Below are positions 4,065 to 11,268 of a stretch of 64,000 nt of DNA, piece by piece. The first letter of the stretch is position 1, and the number at the start of each line of letters is the position of its first letter. Below the pieces are notes generated by a model. The model searched no databases. It was not told the DNA's origin and worked only from the letters and a program-made list of their open reading frames with translations. Source of the DNA: Flavobacteriales bacterium (GTDB lineage: Bacteria; Bacteroidota; Bacteroidia; Flavobacteriales_F; PHOS-HE28); assembly GCA_016705545.1 (NCBI GenBank), contig JADIYA010000020.1, positions 15,413 to 79,412 of the forward strand. The letters run 5' to 3'. The position numbers and the translations under genes were made by a program.

Positions 4065-4793
4065 CTATTGGGCGCCTCGGTCGGGCAAAGGGGCAATGTG
4101 CTGCGCCCAGGCTTCCGGCACGTGCGCGTCCTCTACCCGGTATGGACCGATGGCCGTTCGGCGCAACTGGCTCAGGTGGGCGCCGCATCCCAGCACCTGG
4201 CCGATGTCGTGCGCGAGCGAGCGGATGTAGGTGCCCTTGCTCACATGCACTTCGAAATCGACTTGAGCGCCCCGGACGGCGGTGACTACCAATTGACTGA
4301 TGATCACTTTCACCACGGGCATCACTACTTCGTGGGCCCGCTCGGGATCGCGGGCCAGGAAATAGGCACGTTCACCCTCGAAGCGCTTCGCGGAATAATT
4401 CGGCGGGCGCTGGTCCACTTCACCGATGAAGCGGGCGAATGCGGCGCGTATCTCCGCTTCGCTCAAGTGCTCCCACGGTCCGCTGTGCAAGGTGGCCGTC
4501 TCCAGATCGTAGCTGGGCGTGGTGCTGCCGAGGGTGATGGTGCCCGTGTAGGTCTTCTCCAATCCCGTGAGCGCGGGCAGCTGCTTGGTGAGCGGGCCAT
4601 AGGCCATGATCAGCAGTCCGCTCGCCAGCGGATCCAAGGTGCCGGCATGCCCCACTTTGAAGTTGCGGCGCTGCACCACGCTGCGCATCGCGCCTCGGAT
4701 CTTCTTCACCGCATCGAAGCTGGTCCAGCCGAGGGGCTTGTCCACCAGGATCAGGCCACCGGCGACCGGGTCGAAGACATGGTCATGGATCAT
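4065..4793 (-). CDS. truB: tRNA pseudouridine(55) synthase TruB
   Basis: ATG at 4793: [33 protein letters not shown]...[19 protein letters not shown]...[15 protein letters not shown]. In the ORF track it is fused to the out-of-frame tail of uppP. Confidence 0.93.
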
Positions 4794-4797
4794 GGGC

Positions 4798-5645
4798 TCA
4801 GAACATCTGCATCTGAACGCCCATGAAGTGCAGCGCGATGATGACGCCGCCCACGGCGATGCGGTACCATCCGAAGGCCTTGAAGCCATGCTTGGTGAGG
4901 AAGCCGATGAAGCCGCGGATGGCGATGATGGCCACGATGAAGGCGACGGCGTTGCCGACGGCGAAGAGATTTTCAGTAGTCGTTTCGGAGAAGAATTGAT
5001 GCATCCCAGAAACCGCTCTTCAGGATGGCGAAGGAGGGGAAACGCCCCATGTTCCTTCATGTAATCAAACGTTGTCTTCACCGTTGCGGCGAACATGGTG
5101 GGCACCGCGAGGAAGAAACTGAACTCCGCCGCATGCTTGCGCGTGAGCCCCTGCGAAAGGCCGCCGATGATCGTGGCCGCCGAGCGCGACACGCCGGGCA
5201 CCATGGCCAGGCATTGCCACGCCCCGATGGTGAAGGCCTTGCGCCACGTGATGGGCTGCGGTCCGGTTCCCGTTCCGCCCGGCATCCAGCGATCGATGAA
5301 GAGGAAGACGATGCCGCCGAGGAAGAGCGCGAGGCCCACCACGAAGACGTTCTCCAGCAACGCATCGATGTGCTCCTTGAAGAGCAATCCTGCGATCACC
5401 GCGGGGATGAAGCCCGCGAGGAGCTTGAGGTAGAAGTCGATGCTCTGGAAGAAGCGCTTCCAGTAAAGCACCACCACGCTGAGGATGGTGCCGAACTGGA
5501 TGGCCACGGTGAAGAGCTTCACGAACTCATCCTTCTCGATGCCCATGAGCGCCGAGCCGATGATCATGTGGCCCGTGCTGGAGACGGGCAGGAATTCGGT
5601 GAGCCCCTCGATGATGGCCAGGATGATGGCCTGCAGCAGCGTCAT
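4798..5645 (-). CDS. uppP: undecaprenyl-diphosphate phosphatase UppP (BacA); reading frame broken near 5000-5019
   Basis: N-terminal part (from 5645): [29 protein letters not shown]...[13 protein letters not shown]...[12 protein letters not shown]-terminal part in another frame (4798-5004): ...[41 protein letters not shown]. The 848-nt span is not a multiple of 3. Confidence 0.88.
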
Positions 5646-5907: not shown

Positions 5908-6783
5908 TCAGCTCCAGTGCAATGCTTCGTGATCCATGCGAAGGTAGCGGCCCACGGCCACCCAGGTGGCCAACAGCGCGATGAGCAGCCCTACGACCAC
6001 CACGGCCGCGAAGAGCAGGCCCAGGGAGAGCGCGTCGGTGAAGGCAAGCAGGTCGGGCACGTAGCGCTTGCCCAGCCAGAAGAGGCCGGCGAGCGTACCG
6101 ACGGCCAGCACCGCCGCAATCAGCCCTTGCCACACGCCGCTCAGGAGGAAAGGCCGCTTGATGAACCAGCGGGTGGCGCCCACCAAGTGCATGGTGCGGA
6201 TCAGGAAGCGCTGGCTGTGGATGGCCAGCCGGATGGTGTTGTTGATGAGCGCAACGGCCACCACCAGCAGGAGGGCCAGGAAGATGAGCCCTCCGATGTT
6301 GAGGGTGACGAAATTGCGGTCCATGTTCTCGATCACGGCGGCGTTGTAGGCCACATCGTGCAGGCGGGCATCCTTCTGCAGGCCGGCCACGATCCACTTC
6401 ATGCTGTCGGGGTGCGCATATGCGGGCTTCACGCTCAGCTGGATGCTGGGGTCGATGGGGCTCAGCCCGCCGAGCAGCTCCAGGAAATCCTCGCCCAGCT
6501 CCTCCTTCATTTGCGCAGCGGCTTCTTCCGGGGTCACCAACAAGGTGCCGGCGCTGTATGGCTGAAGGTCCAGCTCCTTGCGGAAGCGCAGCACGTCGGC
6601 CTCCTTCAGCTCGCGCTTCAGGAAGAGCTCCACCCGCACCTGCTCCTTGAAGTAGCGCTCCAGCGCCCGGGCGTTCATCAGGATGAAGCCCTGGATTCCC
6701 AGCATCCACAGCACCAGGGTGATGCCGATGATCGTACCCACGGAGGTGGTGCGGGTTCGGATCTTGCTGCGGCGGGCGCTCAT
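5908..6783 (-). CDS. ftsX: cell-division permease-like protein FtsX
   Basis: 291 aa. N-terminal TM, periplasmic loop (LVTPEEAAAQMKEELGEDF), then three C-terminal TM helices (IRTMHLVGATRWFIKRPFL...). Confidence 0.85.
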   Translation of the reverse strand: MSARRSKIRTRTTSVGTIIGITLVLWMLGIQGFILMNARALERYFKEQVRVELFLKRELKEADVLRFRKELDLQPYSAGTLLVTPEEAAAQMKEELGEDFLELLGGLSPIDPSIQLSVKPAYAHPDSMKWIVAGLQKDARLHDVAYNAAVIENMDRNFVTLNIGGLIFLALLLVVAVALINNTIRLAIHSQRFLIRTMHLVGATRWFIKRPFLLSGVWQGLIAAVLAVGTLAGLFWLGKRYVPDLLAFTDALSLGLLFAAVVVVGLLIALLATWVAVGRYLRMDHEALHWS

Positions 6784-6846: not shown

Positions 6847-9800
6847 ATGGCCTACGAGCACAACGAGATCGAGAAGAAGTGGCGCGCCGAATGGGCGAAG
6901 CGCGGAACCTACCGTGTGGAGAACGACGCTTCACGTCCCAAGTACTACGTGCTCGACATGTTCCCCTACCCCAGCGGCGCCGGCCTGCATGTGGGGCACC
7001 CGCTCGGCTACATCGCGAGTGACATCGTGGCACGCTACAAGCGGCACAGCGGTTTCAACGTGTTGCACCCCATGGGCTACGACAGCTTCGGGCTTCCTGC
7101 CGAGCAGTACGCCATACAGACCGGACAGCACCCCGCGAAGACCACCGAGGTGAACGTGGCGCGCTACCGCGAGCAGCTCGACAACATCGGCTTCAGCTTC
7201 GATTGGAGCCGCGAGGTGCGCACCAGCGATCCGTCGTTCTACAAGTGGACGCAATGGATCTTCCTGCAGCTCTTCGACAGCTGGTACGACCATGAAGCGC
7301 AGAAGGCGAAGCCGATCCACACCTTGGTCGTGCGCTTCGGGCACCAAGGCTGGCATCACGCTGATGCATGCGCCCTCACCGGCGATGTGGAAGAAGAACT
7401 GGGTGCATTCAGCGCTGATGAATGGAAAGCCTACGATGAGCGCACGAAGCAGCGCATCCTTCAGCACTTCCGGCTGGCCTACTTGAGCGAGGCATGGGTG
7501 AACTGGTGCCCCGCATTGGGCACCGTGCTCGCCAACGACGAAGTGAAGGACGGCGTGAGCGAGCGCGGCGGCCACCCCGTGGAGCGCAAGCGGATGCCGC
7601 AGTGGAGCATGCGCATCACCGCCTACGCGCAACGGCTGCTCAGCGGGCTCGATACGCTCGATTGGAGCGAGAGCATCAAGGAGGCGCAGCGCAACTGGAT
7701 CGGACGGAGTGAAGGAGCGCTCGTGCGTTTCAAAGTCAAATCCAACCTCACCCCTAACCCCTCTCCCGAGGAGAGGGGAACAGCTCACTTCGACCAGGAT
7801 GAATCAGATAGTGGTGCGATAAGCCGATTCCGCGAGACCGCAAACCCATTCATCTGGTCGAAGCTCGTCGCACACGCGAAAGAGATGCGTCATAACCCCA
7901 CCGAGGCCGAGAACAAACTCTGGCAGGCCATCCGGGGGAATGCGACCAGTGGCCGAATCCGGCGCCAACACATCATCGACAAGTACATCGTGGACTTTGT
8001 TTCCCTAAGGAAACAATTGGTCATCGAAGTGGATGGTGATATCCACGACCTTCAAATAGAGGAAGATGCACTGAGGACGCTAGCGCTTGGCGAGAAGGGA
8101 TTCAAGGTCATCCGCTTCCGAAATGAAGAGGTGCTCTCCGATGTGTCTGAGGTCAAGCGACGGATTCAAGCAGAACTGGATTCAAGGCCGGACTTCAGTG
8201 CATCAGCAGACGATAAAACCGAAGAGGAGTATTCCTCCCCTCTCCCCGGGAGAGGGGTAGGGGGTGAGGCAATCGAGGTCTTCACGACACGGCCCGACAC
8301 GCTCTTCGGTGTGACGTTCGTAACGCTCGCGCCAGAGCACGAACTCGTGGAAGTGATCACGCCCGCCAACCGCCGTGACGAAGTGATGGCCTACGTCACC
8401 ATGGCGAAGAACCGCAGCGAGCGCGAACGCATGACGGAGGTGAAGCGCGTGAGCGGGGTGTTCACCGGCGCGACCTGCATCCATCCCTTCACCGGACAAG
8501 AAGTGCCCGTGTGGGTGGGCGATTACGTGCTCGGAGGCTACGGCACCGGCGCGGTGATGGCCGTGCCCGGCGGCGATCAGCGCGACTGGAATTTCGCGAC
8601 GCACTTCAATCTGCCCATCATCGCCGTGACCGAGGGCGCTGACATCAGCAAGGAGGCCGATGAGCGCAAGGACGCCACCATCTGCAGCGAAGGTTTTCTC
8701 AAGGGCCTTAAGGTGCCCGATGCGATCAAACGCGCCATTGATGAATTGGAGAAGCGCGGTGCCGGTGAACGTCGAATCAACTTCCGCTTGCGCGATGCCG
8801 CGTTCGGCCGCCAGCGCTATTGGGGCGAGCCGATCCCGATCTACTACAAGGACGATGTGCCCTACGCGCTGCCCGAGAGCGAGCTGCCGCTGAAGCTGCC
8901 CGAAGTGGACAAGTTCCTGCCCACCGAGGACGGAGAACCCCCACTCGCACGCGCAGCGAATTGGAACTACCAAGGCCATCCGTTGGAAACGACGACGATG
9001 CCCGGTTGGGCTGGTAGCAGCTGGTACTTCCTGCGCTACATGGATCCGAAGAACGAAGGCCGCTTCGCGTCACCCGAGGCCATCAACTACTGGCAGCAGG
9101 TCGATCTCTACGTGGGCGGCAGCGAACACGCCACCGGCCACCTGCTCTACTTCCGCTTCTGGACCAAGTTCCTGCACGACCGTGGCTGGATCAACTTCGA
9201 TGAGCCAGCGAAGAAGCTGGTGAACCAAGGGATGATACAGGGGGTGTCGCGGTTCATCTTCTTCATGGGTGTGGCTATCAATTACCCTGACGTGGACAAC
9301 AATACCGTCGTCAAGCTTCAAGAGGAGATGAGAAGATTTCCGGTTGTACTCGTTCCGGAGAGTCTCTACACCCAAGCATCACGGTTGAAGCCAACGGATG
9401 TGCCGATGGTTCGCTCCTTTCTAAATCAAATGCAGCAACTTCGTCTGGAGCGAGATCCGAACGCTGTTGGAGTTATCACGAGTCAGACACTTGCCAAAAC
9501 GCACGTTGACGTCAGCTTTGTCAATCCCGTTACTGGCGAACTTGATATCTCGACTTACAAGAAGTTCGTCGGTAACACTCAAGACGTGGTGGTATTGAGT
9601 GATGGTCCACTTATCTGCCCGTCAGAAGTGGAGAAGATGTCCAAGTCGAAGCTGAACGTTGTGAACCCCGACGACATCATCTCGAAGTACGGCGCGGACA
9701 CTTTGCGCTTGTACGAGATGTTCCTCGGCCCCTTGGAGCAGAGCAAGCCGTGGGATACCAACGGCATTGAAGGCACCTTCCGCTTCCTGCGCAAATTCTG

Positions 9801-10317
9801 GAATCTCTTCCATGGCCATGGGGATGCATTCGGTGTTACCGACGATGCTCCCACCAAACCCGAACTGAAGATCCTGCATGCCACGCTGAAGAAGATCACC
9901 GAGGACATCGAGAAGATGAGCTTCAACACCAGCGTAGCGCAATTCATGATCGCCGCGAACGAGCTGGGCGCGCTCAAATGCAACAAGCGCGCGGTGCTGG
10001 AGCCGCTGGTGATCGCCTTGGCGCCCTTCGCGCCGCATATCGCCGAGGAATTGTGGGAGAAGCTCGGCCATACCGACAGCGTAACAGGGGCAAAATGGCC
10101 CCAATGGGATGCCCAGCACTTGGTGGAGGACAGCTTCAGCTACCCCATCAGTTTCAATGGAAAAACGAGGCTGCAGCTGGAGTTCCCCATCGGGCTGAGC
10201 AAGGAAGAGGTGGAGGCCCAGGTACTTGCGAATCCGGAGGTGCAGGCCAAGCTGGGTGGTCAGCCGCCGAAGAAGGTGATCGTGGTGCCCAAGCGGATCG
10301 TGAACATCGTGGTGTAG
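6847..10317 (+). CDS. leuS: leucine--tRNA ligase LeuS carrying an in-frame ~175-codon insertion
   Basis: ATG at 6847: MAYEHNEIEKKWRAEWAKRG, PYPSGAGLHVGHPLGY (HIGH region), NWIGRSEG, TTRPDTLFGVTF, EKMSKSKLNVV. 1156 codons versus 860 in E. coli LeuS. The upstream part of ORF 5917-10317 is non-coding read-through. Confidence 0.95.
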   Translation: MAYEHNEIEKKWRAEWAKRGTYRVENDASRPKYYVLDMFPYPSGAGLHVGHPLGYIASDIVARYKRHSGFNVLHPMGYDSFGLPAEQYAIQTGQHPAKTTEVNVARYREQLDNIGFSFDWSREVRTSDPSFYKWTQWIFLQLFDSWYDHEAQKAKPIHTLVVRFGHQGWHHADACALTGDVEEELGAFSADEWKAYDERTKQRILQHFRLAYLSEAWVNWCPALGTVLANDEVKDGVSERGGHPVERKRMPQWSMRITAYAQRLLSGLDTLDWSESIKEAQRNWIGRSEGALVRFKVKSNLTPNPSPEERGTAHFDQDESDSGAISRFRETANPFIWSKLVAHAKEMRHNPTEAENKLWQAIRGNATSGRIRRQHIIDKYIVDFVSLRKQLVIEVDGDIHDLQIEEDALRTLALGEKGFKVIRFRNEEVLSDVSEVKRRIQAELDSRPDFSASADDKTEEEYSSPLPGRGVGGEAIEVFTTRPDTLFGVTFVTLAPEHELVEVITPANRRDEVMAYVTMAKNRSERERMTEVKRVSGVFTGATCIHPFTGQEVPVWVGDYVLGGYGTGAVMAVPGGDQRDWNFATHFNLPIIAVTEGADISKEADERKDATICSEGFLKGLKVPDAIKRAIDELEKRGAGERRINFRLRDAAFGRQRYWGEPIPIYYKDDVPYALPESELPLKLPEVDKFLPTEDGEPPLARAANWNYQGHPLETTTMPGWAGSSWYFLRYMDPKNEGRFASPEAINYWQQVDLYVGGSEHATGHLLYFRFWTKFLHDRGWINFDEPAKKLVNQGMIQGVSRFIFFMGVAINYPDVDNNTVVKLQEEMRRFPVVLVPESLYTQASRLKPTDVPMVRSFLNQMQQLRLERDPNAVGVITSQTLAKTHVDVSFVNPVTGELDISTYKKFVGNTQDVVVLSDGPLICPSEVEKMSKSKLNVVNPDDIISKYGADTLRLYEMFLGPLEQSKPWDTNGIEGTFRFLRKFWNLFHGHGDAFGVTDDAPTKPELKILHATLKKITEDIEKMSFNTSVAQFMIAANELGALKCNKRAVLEPLVIALAPFAPHIAEELWEKLGHTDSVTGAKWPQWDAQHLVEDSFSYPISFNGKTRLQLEFPIGLSKEEVEAQVLANPEVQAKLGGQPPKKVIVVPKRIVNIVV
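7746..7778. repeat. left terminal inverted repeat of the leuS insert
   Basis: CCTCACCCCTAACCCCTCTCCCGAGGAGAGGGG; contains its own hairpin CCCCTCTC/GAGAGGGG; translated as ..LTPNPSPEERG. Confidence 0.8.
8237..8269. repeat. right terminal inverted repeat of the leuS insert
   Basis: CCCCTCTCCCCGGGAGAGGGGTAGGGGGTGAGG. Its reverse complement matches the left repeat at 30 of 33 positions. Translated as SPLPGRGVGGE. Confidence 0.8.
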
Positions 10318-10443: not shown

Positions 10444-11268
10444 ATGGCACGCACCTCCACCTTCCTGCTCGCGGGCATCGGCCTCTTCACCATGGCCTTC
10501 GCCCAGAGTGATCGCCCAACCGAACCGAACACGCTCCCGGCTCCCTCGAGCACGCCGTACCGCAGCATCAGCCACAATGCCTTCAAGCCCGGCGAGAAGC
10601 TCACCTACGTTGTTCACTACGGCTGGATGAACGCTGGCGAAGCGGTTGTGGAATTGCGTGAGTCGGAGCAGCCCATCATGGGACGCAAGGTGCTGCGCGC
10701 GGTGGGCCGCGGCCGGAGCCTCGGCGCCTTCAACGCCTTCTACAAGGTCGATGACTATTACGAGAGCCAGATCGATTCCGAGGGCGTGTTCCCGTGGATG
10801 TTCCAGCGCCGCGTGAGCGAGGGCGGCTACGAGTTCTCACAGGACTACTTCTACCGCCAGCACAAGAACGAGGTGACCACGCAGAAGCAGCAAACGCATG
10901 CTGTGCCACCCAGCGTGCAAGACATGCTCAGCGCCTTCTACTACGCGCGCACGATTGACTTCAGCAACGCCAATCCCGGCGATGTGTACACCATCCAGAC
11001 CTTCCTCGATGACGAGCTCTGGCCCTTGCAGATGAAGTTCATCGGCAGGGAGACGATCAAATTGCGGAACGGGAAGTACCGCTGCATGAAGTTCCAGCCC
11101 GTGGTGCAGGAGGGCCGCGTGTTCAAGACCAACGACGACCTCAACGTGTGGATCACCGACGACGGCAACAAGATCCCCGTGCTCGCGCAGGCCAAGGTGC
11201 TCGTGGGCTCGATCAAGATGGAGCTGAGCCAGTACGAAGGGCTGAGCCATCCGATCGCGAAGCACTAG
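10444..11268 (+). CDS. DUF3108 domain-containing protein
   Basis: ATG at 10444 gives signal peptide MARTSTFLLAGIGLFTMAFAQ. GEKLTYVVHYGWMNAGEAVVEL... and ...KIPVLAQAKVLVGSIKMELSQY are typical of DUF3108. Confidence 0.75.
   Translation: MARTSTFLLAGIGLFTMAFAQSDRPTEPNTLPAPSSTPYRSISHNAFKPGEKLTYVVHYGWMNAGEAVVELRESEQPIMGRKVLRAVGRGRSLGAFNAFYKVDDYYESQIDSEGVFPWMFQRRVSEGGYEFSQDYFYRQHKNEVTTQKQQTHAVPPSVQDMLSAFYYARTIDFSNANPGDVYTIQTFLDDELWPLQMKFIGRETIKLRNGKYRCMKFQPVVQEGRVFKTNDDLNVWITDDGNKIPVLAQAKVLVGSIKMELSQYEGLSHPIAKH

Follow-up and report, generated by a model that had tools for sequence, protein, structure and literature searches.

The DNA described here is a 64,000-nt window of a Flavobacteriales bacterium genome (GCA_016705545.1, contig JADIYA010000020.1 positions 15,413-79,412), and the subject of this report is a 524-nt element at window positions 7746-8269 that interrupts leuS, the gene for leucyl-tRNA synthetase (LeuS). 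Pfam analysis of the 1156-aa gene product finds tRNA-synt_1, the LeuRS editing domain and Anticodon_1, interrupted by a DUF559 domain. An initial annotation, made from the letters of the sequence, had claimed an in-frame insert of about 175 extra codons with a DUF559/Vsr-like nuclease signature between 33-nt terminal inverted repeats. The distance from RSEG to TTRPDT is 199 aa in the window versus 27 aa in L002 (RSEGALVRFKLKDIAGNIEVFTTRPDT), the empty allele nearest to it, so the measured gain is 172 codons (516 nt), located between RSEGALVRF and IEVFTTRPDT. The leuS frame stays open through the insert and is the same on entry and exit, just as had been read at first. The element itself, at 524 nt, is not a multiple of 3, and thus the insertion was not a clean addition. 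The initial annotation had also expected a plausible short hairpin after removal of the element; a short hairpin is indeed left, but it is two residues shorter than in the nearest empty alleles retrieved (L002, 27-residue type). The exact window protein is not on record, and P0121 (99% identical) stood in for it. The gene and the parts of the insert are arranged as follows.

6847-10317, forward strand: leuS, the host gene (1156 aa including the insert; open reading frame (ORF) and translation).
7711-7745, forward strand: host strand leading into the hairpin (LVRFKVKSN), from the alignment with empty alleles.
7746-7778, forward strand: left 33-nt terminal unit, with the outer 9-mer CCTCACCCC (7746-7754), the spacer TAA and the hairpin CCCCTCTCC-CGA-GGAGAGGGG (7758-7778); peptide LTPNPSPEERG.
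7779-7863, forward strand: N-terminal linker and pre-core helix of the insert (TAHFDQDESDSGAISRFRETANPFIWSKL...), with low model confidence at the start.
7864-8178, forward strand: DUF559/Vsr-like PD-(D/E)XK nuclease core, insert residues 41-145, equal to LeuS residues 340-444.
8179-8236, forward strand: C-terminal linker of the insert (SRPDFSASADDKTEEEYS), with a low predicted local distance difference test score (pLDDT) in both models.
8237-8269, forward strand: right 33-nt terminal unit, inverted, with the hairpin CCCCTCTCC-CCG-GGAGAGGGG (8237-8257), the spacer TA and the outer GGGGGTGAGG (8260-8269); peptide SPLPGRGVGGE.
8270-8293, forward strand: host strand leading out of the hairpin (AIEVFTTR), where the editing domain's invariant VFTTRPDT block starts.

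The insert lies between the invariant residue F295 and the block V478-T485, which is invariant in 55 LeuS sequences. Its inverted-repeat arms (7746-7779 and 8236-8269) are 34 nt long and 91% complementary, in agreement with the repeats described initially, and each arm contains the predicted hairpin, a fully paired 9-bp stem closed by a loop of 3 nt (CCCCTCTCC-nnn-GGAGAGGGG; 7758-7778 and 8237-8257), which folds at about -10 kcal/mol as DNA. This hairpin motif occurs at two sites only in the window, both in the element, where 0.02 would be expected by chance, and no further copy of the element was found in the window by tblastn with the insert, blastn with the repeats or the hairpin scan. The lower GC content noticed initially was borne out: it is 0.53 between the repeats versus 0.62 for the whole window, and at third codon positions (GC3) it is 0.62 in the insert versus 0.84 and 0.77 in the two leuS flanks. 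The trinucleotide CAA at 7743-7745 recurs at 8270-8272; the other alleles examined have no such repeat, and it is therefore probably due to chance. The compositional difference between insert and flanks is the one observation in keeping with an assembly chimera or sequencing artefact, an explanation of negligible probability. The same leuS gene, with its insert and both junctions, was recovered independently on a contig from a wastewater metagenome (L001; ERZ965206, 6344 bp), and a second fragment (P0112) crosses the left junction, which excludes the chimeric assembly that the initial annotation had warned of. Dozens of other assemblies, including those of cultured isolates, show the same arrangement.

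The insert matches Pfam DUF559 (PF04480) over profile positions 3-108 of 109, i.e., the whole domain, with E=1e-31 and 109.5 bits (curated cut-off 20.6 bits), and there is a weak MTES_1575 match besides. Among structures in PDB, the nearest by sequence are 3hrl (E=4e-15) and 3r3p, the catalytic domain of the homing endonuclease I-Bth0305I (E=0.02), and a Foldseek search with the insert model gave template modeling (TM) scores of 0.86 for 3hrl, 0.73 for 3r3p and 0.41 for 1vsr. DUF559 was grouped with Vsr and I-Bth0305I in a survey of the PD-(D/E)XK superfamily (PMC3424549). A family alignment of 71 sequences has 12 invariant columns, every one of which is retained in the window's copy (E56, W60, Q75, D84, F85, E95, D97, G98, H101, D108, R111, and R124); D84, E95, D97, and H101 belong to the VDF...IEVDG..H constellation, and the most conserved columns of the family are the putative catalytic ones. 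In every comparison that is not saturated, the DUF559 core has a ratio of nonsynonymous to synonymous divergence (dN/dS) of 0.03-0.15, which matches the 0.04-0.13 of the LeuS flanks. The alignments thus show a nuclease domain that is complete and under purifying selection, and one degenerate copy (P0215) was encountered in the family. The AlphaFold2 model of the insert alone has a pLDDT of 81.7, with 85-97 over residues 33-150 and poor values at both ends (about 50 for residues 11-30 and 55-63 for the C-terminal linker). In the full LeuS model the DUF559 part is also well predicted, with linkers (residues 300-325 and 452-473) below 50; the full-length model is poor overall (pLDDT 63, predicted TM score 0.37), so that it was used for local confidence and not for placing the insert relative to the active and editing sites. 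These models predict that the DUF559 part folds as an independent domain held on poorly predicted linkers. Mitoribosomal proteins of Toxoplasma and Tetrahymena (9i05 Xv/Xl/Xr, 9g6k, and 6z1p AS) also matched the DUF559 model with high probability in the Foldseek search; the DUF559 fold seems to have been reused in mitoribosomes.

Two kinds of self-removing insert were considered and rejected. Pfam analysis of the insert and of the whole LeuS found no Hint domain, and the junctions (...KSN|LTPNP... and ...GVGGE|AIEVF) do not have the Cys/Ser, His-Asn and +1 Cys/Ser/Thr residues of an intein. An Rfam scan of 7400-8600 (E<=1) returned three chance matches only, to eukaryotic or unrelated families, and no group I or group II intron. 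Without a Hint domain, intein junctions or an Rfam intron, the insert must be translated and kept in the protein: the element is read through in frame with leuS.

To place the window allele among its relatives, the protein was aligned with its 120 nearest LeuS homologs, all from Flavobacteriales metagenome-assembled genomes (MAGs) or metagenomes. A DUF559 cassette is present in exactly this loop in 53 of the 121 sequences, while the remaining 68 have a clean site of 25-27 residues; these are the empty sites that the initial annotation had proposed to look for. On the host tree (neighbor-joining, 868 LeuS columns) occupied and empty alleles are interleaved, requiring at least 25 changes by parsimony versus 31-46 with shuffled tips, and the nearest relative is an empty allele for 20 of the 53 occupied ones. 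Host identity and insert identity are weakly correlated (Spearman 0.19), with mismatches in both directions. The P0131 and P0139 hosts are 95% identical and carry cassettes that are 46% identical; at the DNA level (L085 and L086) these hosts are 91% (5') and 84% (3') identical with inserts at 54%, the termini alone being in common; in P0135 and P0202 the hosts are 84% and the cassettes 96% identical. The interleaving and the mismatches between cassette and host fit repeated gain, replacement and horizontal movement, and do not fit a single old fusion. We conclude from these comparisons that the element has been mobile on evolutionary time scales.

Comparisons close to the window point in the same direction. 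Between the window and L001 (99% identical) there are 38 differences in leuS, none of them within 7708-8426 (P=0.002); ten of the 38 crowd into 7563-7707, the 145 nt upstream of the insert, and the next 719 nt are identical; this may mark the boundary of a recombination tract. In the comparison with L003 (insert 89% identical), synonymous divergence (dS) is 0.41 for the insert versus 0.78-0.80 for the host. The position of the right junction with leuS is common to all alleles examined; the left junction is variable, with VRF followed by 1 to 6 host codons.

The initial annotation had left room for a domesticated nuclease fusion. In its fullest form this alternative holds that LeuS and the other hosts have an old, lineage-specific accessory domain: a domesticated nuclease-fold module that serves the host, with vertical inheritance and repeated losses since then. 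The purifying selection, as strong as on LeuS itself, keeps it alive, as does the presence of the cassette in many cultured Bacteroidota; furthermore, in Flavobacterium species the insert dS is similar to the host dS, which fits co-descent and indicates that long vertical persistence also occurs. Such a domain would be hard to reconcile with the 25 or more changes that the host tree requires, with near-identical hosts that carry unrelated cassettes and divergent hosts that carry near-identical ones, with the foreign GC3 of the insert in the window, and with degenerate copies such as P0215. Although found in many Bacteroidota, the insert is patchy there and has the inverted repeats and, in the window, a foreign composition, unlike what the annotation had said an old domain would show, and we consider this alternative improbable; the two sets of data presented below, on the hosts and on the termini, add to the case against it.

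The family was followed beyond leuS by two routes. An earlier homolog search with the insert had listed mostly short stand-alone proteins and missed a 99%-identical LeuS, so it under-reports fusions. An exhaustive HMMER search covered 1.84 billion cluster representatives and gave 16,948 matches, the best 148 of which (50%-identity clusters) were inspected. Seventy of these 148 representatives are fused to host sequence, with the domain internal in 37 and with at least 80 host residues on one side in 33. Pfam analysis of 62 of the 70 fused representatives found 74 host families. Recurrent among the hosts of the 62 are class I aminoacyl-tRNA synthetases (12, including 10 LeuS), the Type ISP C-terminal domain (12), SpoIIE/PP2C (5), and N6 methyltransferases. 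In the 62, the peptides at the borders (P-x-P ... G-x-G type) hardly vary. The Type ISP restriction-modification enzymes (12/62) are split in their C-terminal specificity domain and are as frequent as the aminoacyl-tRNA synthetases. The top match of the search, P0241 (377 aa), consists of three tandem DUF559 domains.

The second route was a genome scan with one genome per species, in which the 80 nearest loci held 83 DUF559 matches and hosts were confirmed by Pfam. DUF559 lies within a long ORF in 81 of the 83 matches. The host proteins were the following.

LeuS, 26 loci: same hairpin; in cultured Flavobacterium spp., Formosa undariae, Mesonia oceanica, Capnocytophaga leadbetteri DSM 22902, and one Saccharibacteria.
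IcmF-like fusion protein, 20 loci: just before the MeaB P-loop.
MetH, 12 loci: activation domain.
WecB, 8 loci.
HisD, 4 loci: C-terminal fusions.
IspG, Acs, MetRS, HutU, HisH, and CinA, 1 locus each.

The LeuS loop is occupied in Flavobacteriales, Chitinophagales, Sphingobacteriales, Bacteroidales and the Candidate Phyla Radiation (CPR), always directly upstream of the invariant motif; CPR-type LeuS has the cassette in the same hairpin, and IleRS has it in the equivalent hairpin before TTTPWT. Insertion points in general typically adjoin invariant motifs (VFTTRPDT, GITGTGGAGKS, DCTGHG, FWCTADIGW, and WFDAPIGY). The comparison across hosts thus reveals the same architecture splitting many unrelated housekeeping proteins, usually beside an invariant motif, and its occurrence in functionally unlinked proteins (WecB, HutU, IspG, PP2C, and Type ISP) is difficult to explain by an accessory domain with a host function. 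In the DUF559 trees (neighbor-joining, 109-129 columns) shallow clades track the host site and the LeuS cassettes are polyphyletic, the deep nodes being unreliable. The IspG cassette of another Flavobacteriales genome (L004) nests in a LeuS cassette clade, and the CPR LeuS cassettes cluster with cassettes of other CPR genes and not with the Bacteroidota LeuS cassettes. Collections of phages and plasmids gave two weak matches and stand-alone DUF559 proteins of at most 47% identity, respectively, and provided no evidence for a phage or plasmid vector. Some genes carry two full cassettes: a Pedobacter leuS (L011 9026-12895) has one at the hairpin site and one in the loop before TMPGWAGSSWY, and two are also found in a Chitinophagaceae metH (L063 3252-7067) and in the Type ISP/methyltransferase protein P0247.

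The ends of the cassette behave differently from its core. In the four LeuS alleles with DNA sequence, the ends read CTCACCCC-n2-3-CCCCTCTCC-nnn-GGAGAGGGG ... CCCCTCTCC-nnn-GGAGAGGGG-nn-GGGGGTGAG; the loops are variable, unlike the stems and outer 9-mers, which do not change. A 1-nt difference in the spacer shifts the frame of the unit between alleles, giving LTPGPSPKERG in one and LTPALSSGE in another. Since the same unit DNA is read in different frames, the constraint acts on the nucleic acid and not on the peptide, so the terminal units are conserved as DNA, which again would not be expected of a host domain kept for its function. The arms are pure pyrimidine or pure purine runs, and because of this the units are free of stop codons in all six frames; their peptides are rich in Pro, Ser, Gly, Glu, and Arg. 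The left terminal unit of the window element also borders the cassettes in L083, L085 and L086. No consistent target-site duplication was found: L083, L085, L086 and 95 solo units have no such repeat, and the CAA that flanks both ends in the window is not general.

Most units occur away from the nuclease. The exact unit was found in at least 120 metagenome stretches. The 95 units analyzed begin with CCTCACCCC when aligned, with a purine at -1, and 80 of them are 33 nt long; approximately nine adjoin DUF559 and about 85 are away from any DUF559 (adjacency was counted on either side, the inner-side count being unreliable as the tblastn queries contained unit peptides). Units without DUF559 are solo, or form left-plus-right pairs of about 92-139 nt, or, in one pair, surround 370 nt. 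Many of them lie in frame inside ORFs, e.g., in PurL, AspRS and IspG, and the IspG unit pair sits at the site of the full cassette in L004. Solo units are also found in other loops of cassette-bearing LeuS genes, such as the loop before ETTTMPGW, which in other genomes holds a full cassette. The two 21-nt hairpins of the window element are direct as well as inverted repeats, and if the DNA between them were deleted, precisely one unit would remain. Overall, the units are distributed as expected for an autonomous element accompanied by non-autonomous derivatives or footprints.

Several individual copies illustrate these forms. In L003, which is the nearest insert-bearing relative at the species level (89% identical), a solo 33-nt unit lies in frame at 6409-6441 (SPLLGRGAGGEG), in the LeuS loop before PLETTTMPGW, where the window has none. 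The elements of about 92 nt at L096 3787-3878, L104 884-975 and L157 473-565 have 28 nt of spacer between the left and the right unit, are in frame in ORFs of 313-448 aa, and have similar spacer peptides (ELPITDCVSL-like). At L156 1180-1615 a left and a right unit enclose about 370 nt with internal repeats and without DUF559 similarity. In L006 a tandem peptide repeat (NDNTTNLSPSPLE, two full copies; 10598-10700) adjoins the right unit of the LeuS cassette; the same leuS gene has three more solo units elsewhere and one just downstream.

The excess of solitary units raises the question of what moves them. One possibility is an enzyme encoded elsewhere, with DUF559 a frequent passenger, for example a defence or addiction nuclease. 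That most units are away from DUF559 and that unit pairs can enclose other sequence (370 nt in L156; 28-75 nt in short pairs) would suit a passenger. DUF559 is, however, the sole protein domain between units in the material examined. In addition, a perfect hairpin lies no more than 200 nt from the core in 45 of the 80 nearest DUF559 loci, the pyrimidine-run/purine-run hairpins being 66-fold denser there than elsewhere in the 80 loci, and the near invariance of the border peptides in the 62 fused representatives likewise ties the domain to its ends. We regard a passenger role as quite improbable, slightly more so than the accessory domain.

Our preferred reading, to which we give a probability of roughly 0.6, is that 7746-8269 is a member of a widespread family of selfish, intein-less, translated-through nuclease elements that spread by nuclease-initiated gene conversion. 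The initial annotation had leaned to a selfish or homing-type element without an intein, tolerated in a surface loop, and the patchy alleles, the discordant trees, the many hosts and the lack of an intein or intron signature support that view; its alternative of a domesticated fusion is weak, and it is the strong purifying selection and the long persistence in Flavobacterium that keep it in play. Under the preferred reading the LeuS-DUF559 chimera, or a fragment of it, would nick or cut DNA, the target being either the element-free allele near the sequence coding for VFTTRPDT or the palindromic units themselves. Recombinational repair would then copy the cassette from an occupied allele in a homing-like manner, sometimes with co-conversion of short flanking tracts. 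The 33-nt units may be just long enough to serve as portable homology, allowing cassettes to be swapped at occupied sites and, rarely, to jump to new genes. Being free of stop codons, they would be translated into flexible Pro/Ser/Gly-rich linkers; the nuclease would then fold on its own at the tip of the hairpin that leads to the editing domain, and LeuS would remain functional. In an essential gene, next to an invariant motif, imprecise loss would be lethal and the element would be trapped, by the same logic as applies to inteins.

A number of points weigh against this reading. Cleavage, target and homing event are all putative. Classical homing needs no terminal inverted repeats, and the strong conservation of the repeats as DNA therefore points to a further step. 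Homing reproduces junctions faithfully, yet alleles differ in their left junction; together with a length that is not a multiple of 3, this indicates that deletions or imprecise events were involved. A small PD-(D/E)XK domain tethered in a 1156-aa enzyme may have limited access to DNA. The dS pattern in Flavobacterium fits long vertical co-descent, and could equally mean that the domain is useful or constrained by its fold. Finally, most of the LeuS sequences are from MAGs or metagenome contigs, the deep nodes of neighbor-joining trees are unreliable, and no presence/absence polymorphism inside one species was found among the LeuS compared.

The main rival is true transposition directed by the units: DUF559 would recognize the 33-nt units and move whatever lies between them, be it the cassette, the pairs of about 92 nt or solo units, the targets would be arbitrary, and the recurrence in the same loop would reflect insertions that are tolerated and cannot be lost. 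Much of the evidence on the units suits it, namely terminal inverted repeats that are kept where cores are only 46% identical, MITE-like (miniature inverted-repeat transposable element) pairs and solo units that far outnumber full cassettes, and solo units that accumulate in cassette-bearing genes. The many unrelated hosts, the LeuS-clade cassette in IspG and the grouping of CPR LeuS cassettes with other CPR-gene cassettes would also follow. A PD-(D/E)XK hydrolase alone, however, is not known to carry out strand transfer. The absence of a consistent target-site duplication around units or cassettes is not what transposition would predict; neither is the hitting of the same LeuS loop across Flavobacteriales, Chitinophagales, Sphingobacteriales, Bacteroidales and CPR, nor the finding of just two units in the 64-kb window, both belonging to this element. 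On balance we think transposition as the whole explanation unlikely, and it may be part of the truth.

If the preferred reading is right, the elements would represent a third way for a selfish nuclease gene to reside in an essential gene, besides self-splicing introns and inteins, in which the element is simply translated as an extra domain on linkers made from its own palindromic ends. This would give DUF559 a biological role and would explain common and puzzling insertions and Pro/Gly-rich peptides in Bacteroidota proteins. The insertions would provide natural maps of permissive sites in aminoacyl-tRNA synthetases, MetH, IcmF, and other enzymes, and a source of compact nucleases with possibly long or structure-specific targets. 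The finding also bears on annotation: the chimeric genes are now named after the host enzyme only, and gene callers used on metagenomes split them or extend them through the stop-free units. As some of the carriers are in culture (Capnocytophaga leadbetteri DSM 22902, several Flavobacterium species, Formosa undariae, and Mesonia oceanica), the questions raised by the element can be tested directly.

Two other features of the locus were noted. At 9200-9700 leuS has a second low-GC stretch (GC 0.48-0.52), whose DNA is about 60% identical to the closest LeuS relatives, the remainder of the gene being 86-92% identical; no inverted repeats or hairpin units were seen in it, and it looks like a hypervariable lineage-specific segment. 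The genes around leuS are FtsX, DUF3098, BacA, and TruB upstream and DUF3108 downstream, in synteny with the empty-site relatives L002 and L084. On the reverse strand (4065-5645) a single 526-aa ORF runs from a UppP/BacA-like N-terminus to a TruB-like C-terminus, the two parts joined by residues rich in Ser, Pro and Ala that have the look of an out-of-frame translation. The syntenic relative L002 has distinct bacA and truB genes, and there is probably a frameshift or fusion near 4800-5000.

Inteins with homing endonucleases are among the closest known systems. Like them, the element is in frame in an essential conserved gene beside an invariant motif, is sporadic among close relatives, occupies the same site in distant taxa, has a nuclease under selection and has degenerate copies. 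Unlike them, it has no Hint domain or junction nucleophiles and stays in the mature protein, its nuclease is Vsr-like/DUF559 and not LAGLIDADG or HNH, and it has palindromic terminal inverted repeats. It shares with homing endonuclease genes in general the sporadic presence at one defined site with empty alleles and the discordance of element and host phylogenies (neighbor-joining); those genes are located in self-splicing introns or inteins, or are free-standing, and leave the host product unaltered, whereas the element here is read through. Vsr-like homing endonucleases have been described that occupy ORFs of their own, within group I introns and "fractured genes" (PMC2677866). I-Bth0305I (3r3p) and the fractured-gene endonucleases have the same fold and a related catalytic motif and are likewise selfish nucleases that interrupt conserved enzyme genes, but they have their own starts, upstream hairpins and extra DNA-binding modules and are situated in group I introns or between split-intein halves. 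The nuclease of the element belongs to a different Pfam family (DUF559), has no extra module and is translated within the host protein.

With regard to terminal repeats, the initial annotation had likened the element to the Rickettsia palindromic elements (RPEs), which are about 100-150 bp long and are not known to encode an enzyme or to occur outside Rickettsia. The likeness is apt for the 33-nt units and the pairs of about 92 nt, which behave like RPEs or in-frame MITEs in being palindromic repeats in frame at surface-compatible positions, and does not extend to membership of the RPE family. The 524-nt element carries its own nuclease domain and occurs in Bacteroidota and CPR, with hairpin-peptide-flanked relatives among distant matches; it is thus no short enzyme-less palindromic repeat, a description that would suit the units and pairs. 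In-frame palindromic repeats are known from Rickettsia, and intragenic repetitive extragenic palindromes (REPs) have been reported (PMC3733652). REPs and their REP-associated tyrosine transposases (RAYTs), together called REPtrons, resemble the present system in having an enzyme gene between inverted hairpin repeats and many more enzyme-less copies dispersed. RAYTs are HUH tyrosine transposases, however, and REPs are mostly extragenic with GTAG or CGTC tags (PMC3733652), whereas the element has a PD-(D/E)XK hydrolase and untagged units, many copies of which are in frame inside genes. Membership of the REP/RAYT group was rejected, as none of the 95 aligned units has a GTAG or CGTC tag and DUF559, not an HUH enzyme, is all that lies between the repeats. 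Insertion sequences share the terminal inverted repeats (34 nt, 91% complementary), and Pfam found no DDE, HUH, serine or tyrosine transposase domain in the element. Mitochondrial GC-cluster or double-hairpin elements also combine GC-rich hairpins with mobile endonuclease ORFs fused in frame to host 3' ends, e.g., in Allomyces atp6, and the HisD C-terminal fusions (L026, L066, and L072) resemble them; they differ in compartment, in their GIY-YIG/LAGLIDADG nucleases and in having terminal, not internal, fusions.

No description of in-frame DUF559 cassettes or of the palindromic units was found in the open full-text literature, subscription-only literature being outside the search. We see the element as a variant of homing endonuclease genes and in-frame palindromic elements, with a real chance that it forms a class of its own. 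We put forward tentatively, as something a little short of an even bet, that it belongs to a previously unrecognized class of bacterial mobile elements that colonize protein-coding sequence without splicing. Such a class would comprise an autonomous Vsr-like nuclease cassette, palindromic termini open in six frames that act as both DNA sites and peptide linkers, and abundant non-autonomous 33-nt solo units and pairs of about 92 nt in housekeeping proteins across Bacteroidota, with full cassettes also in CPR and with lineages specialized on conserved sites, for which the LeuS/IleRS editing-domain hairpin, the IcmF MeaB P-loop, the MetH activation domain and PP2C are the candidates.

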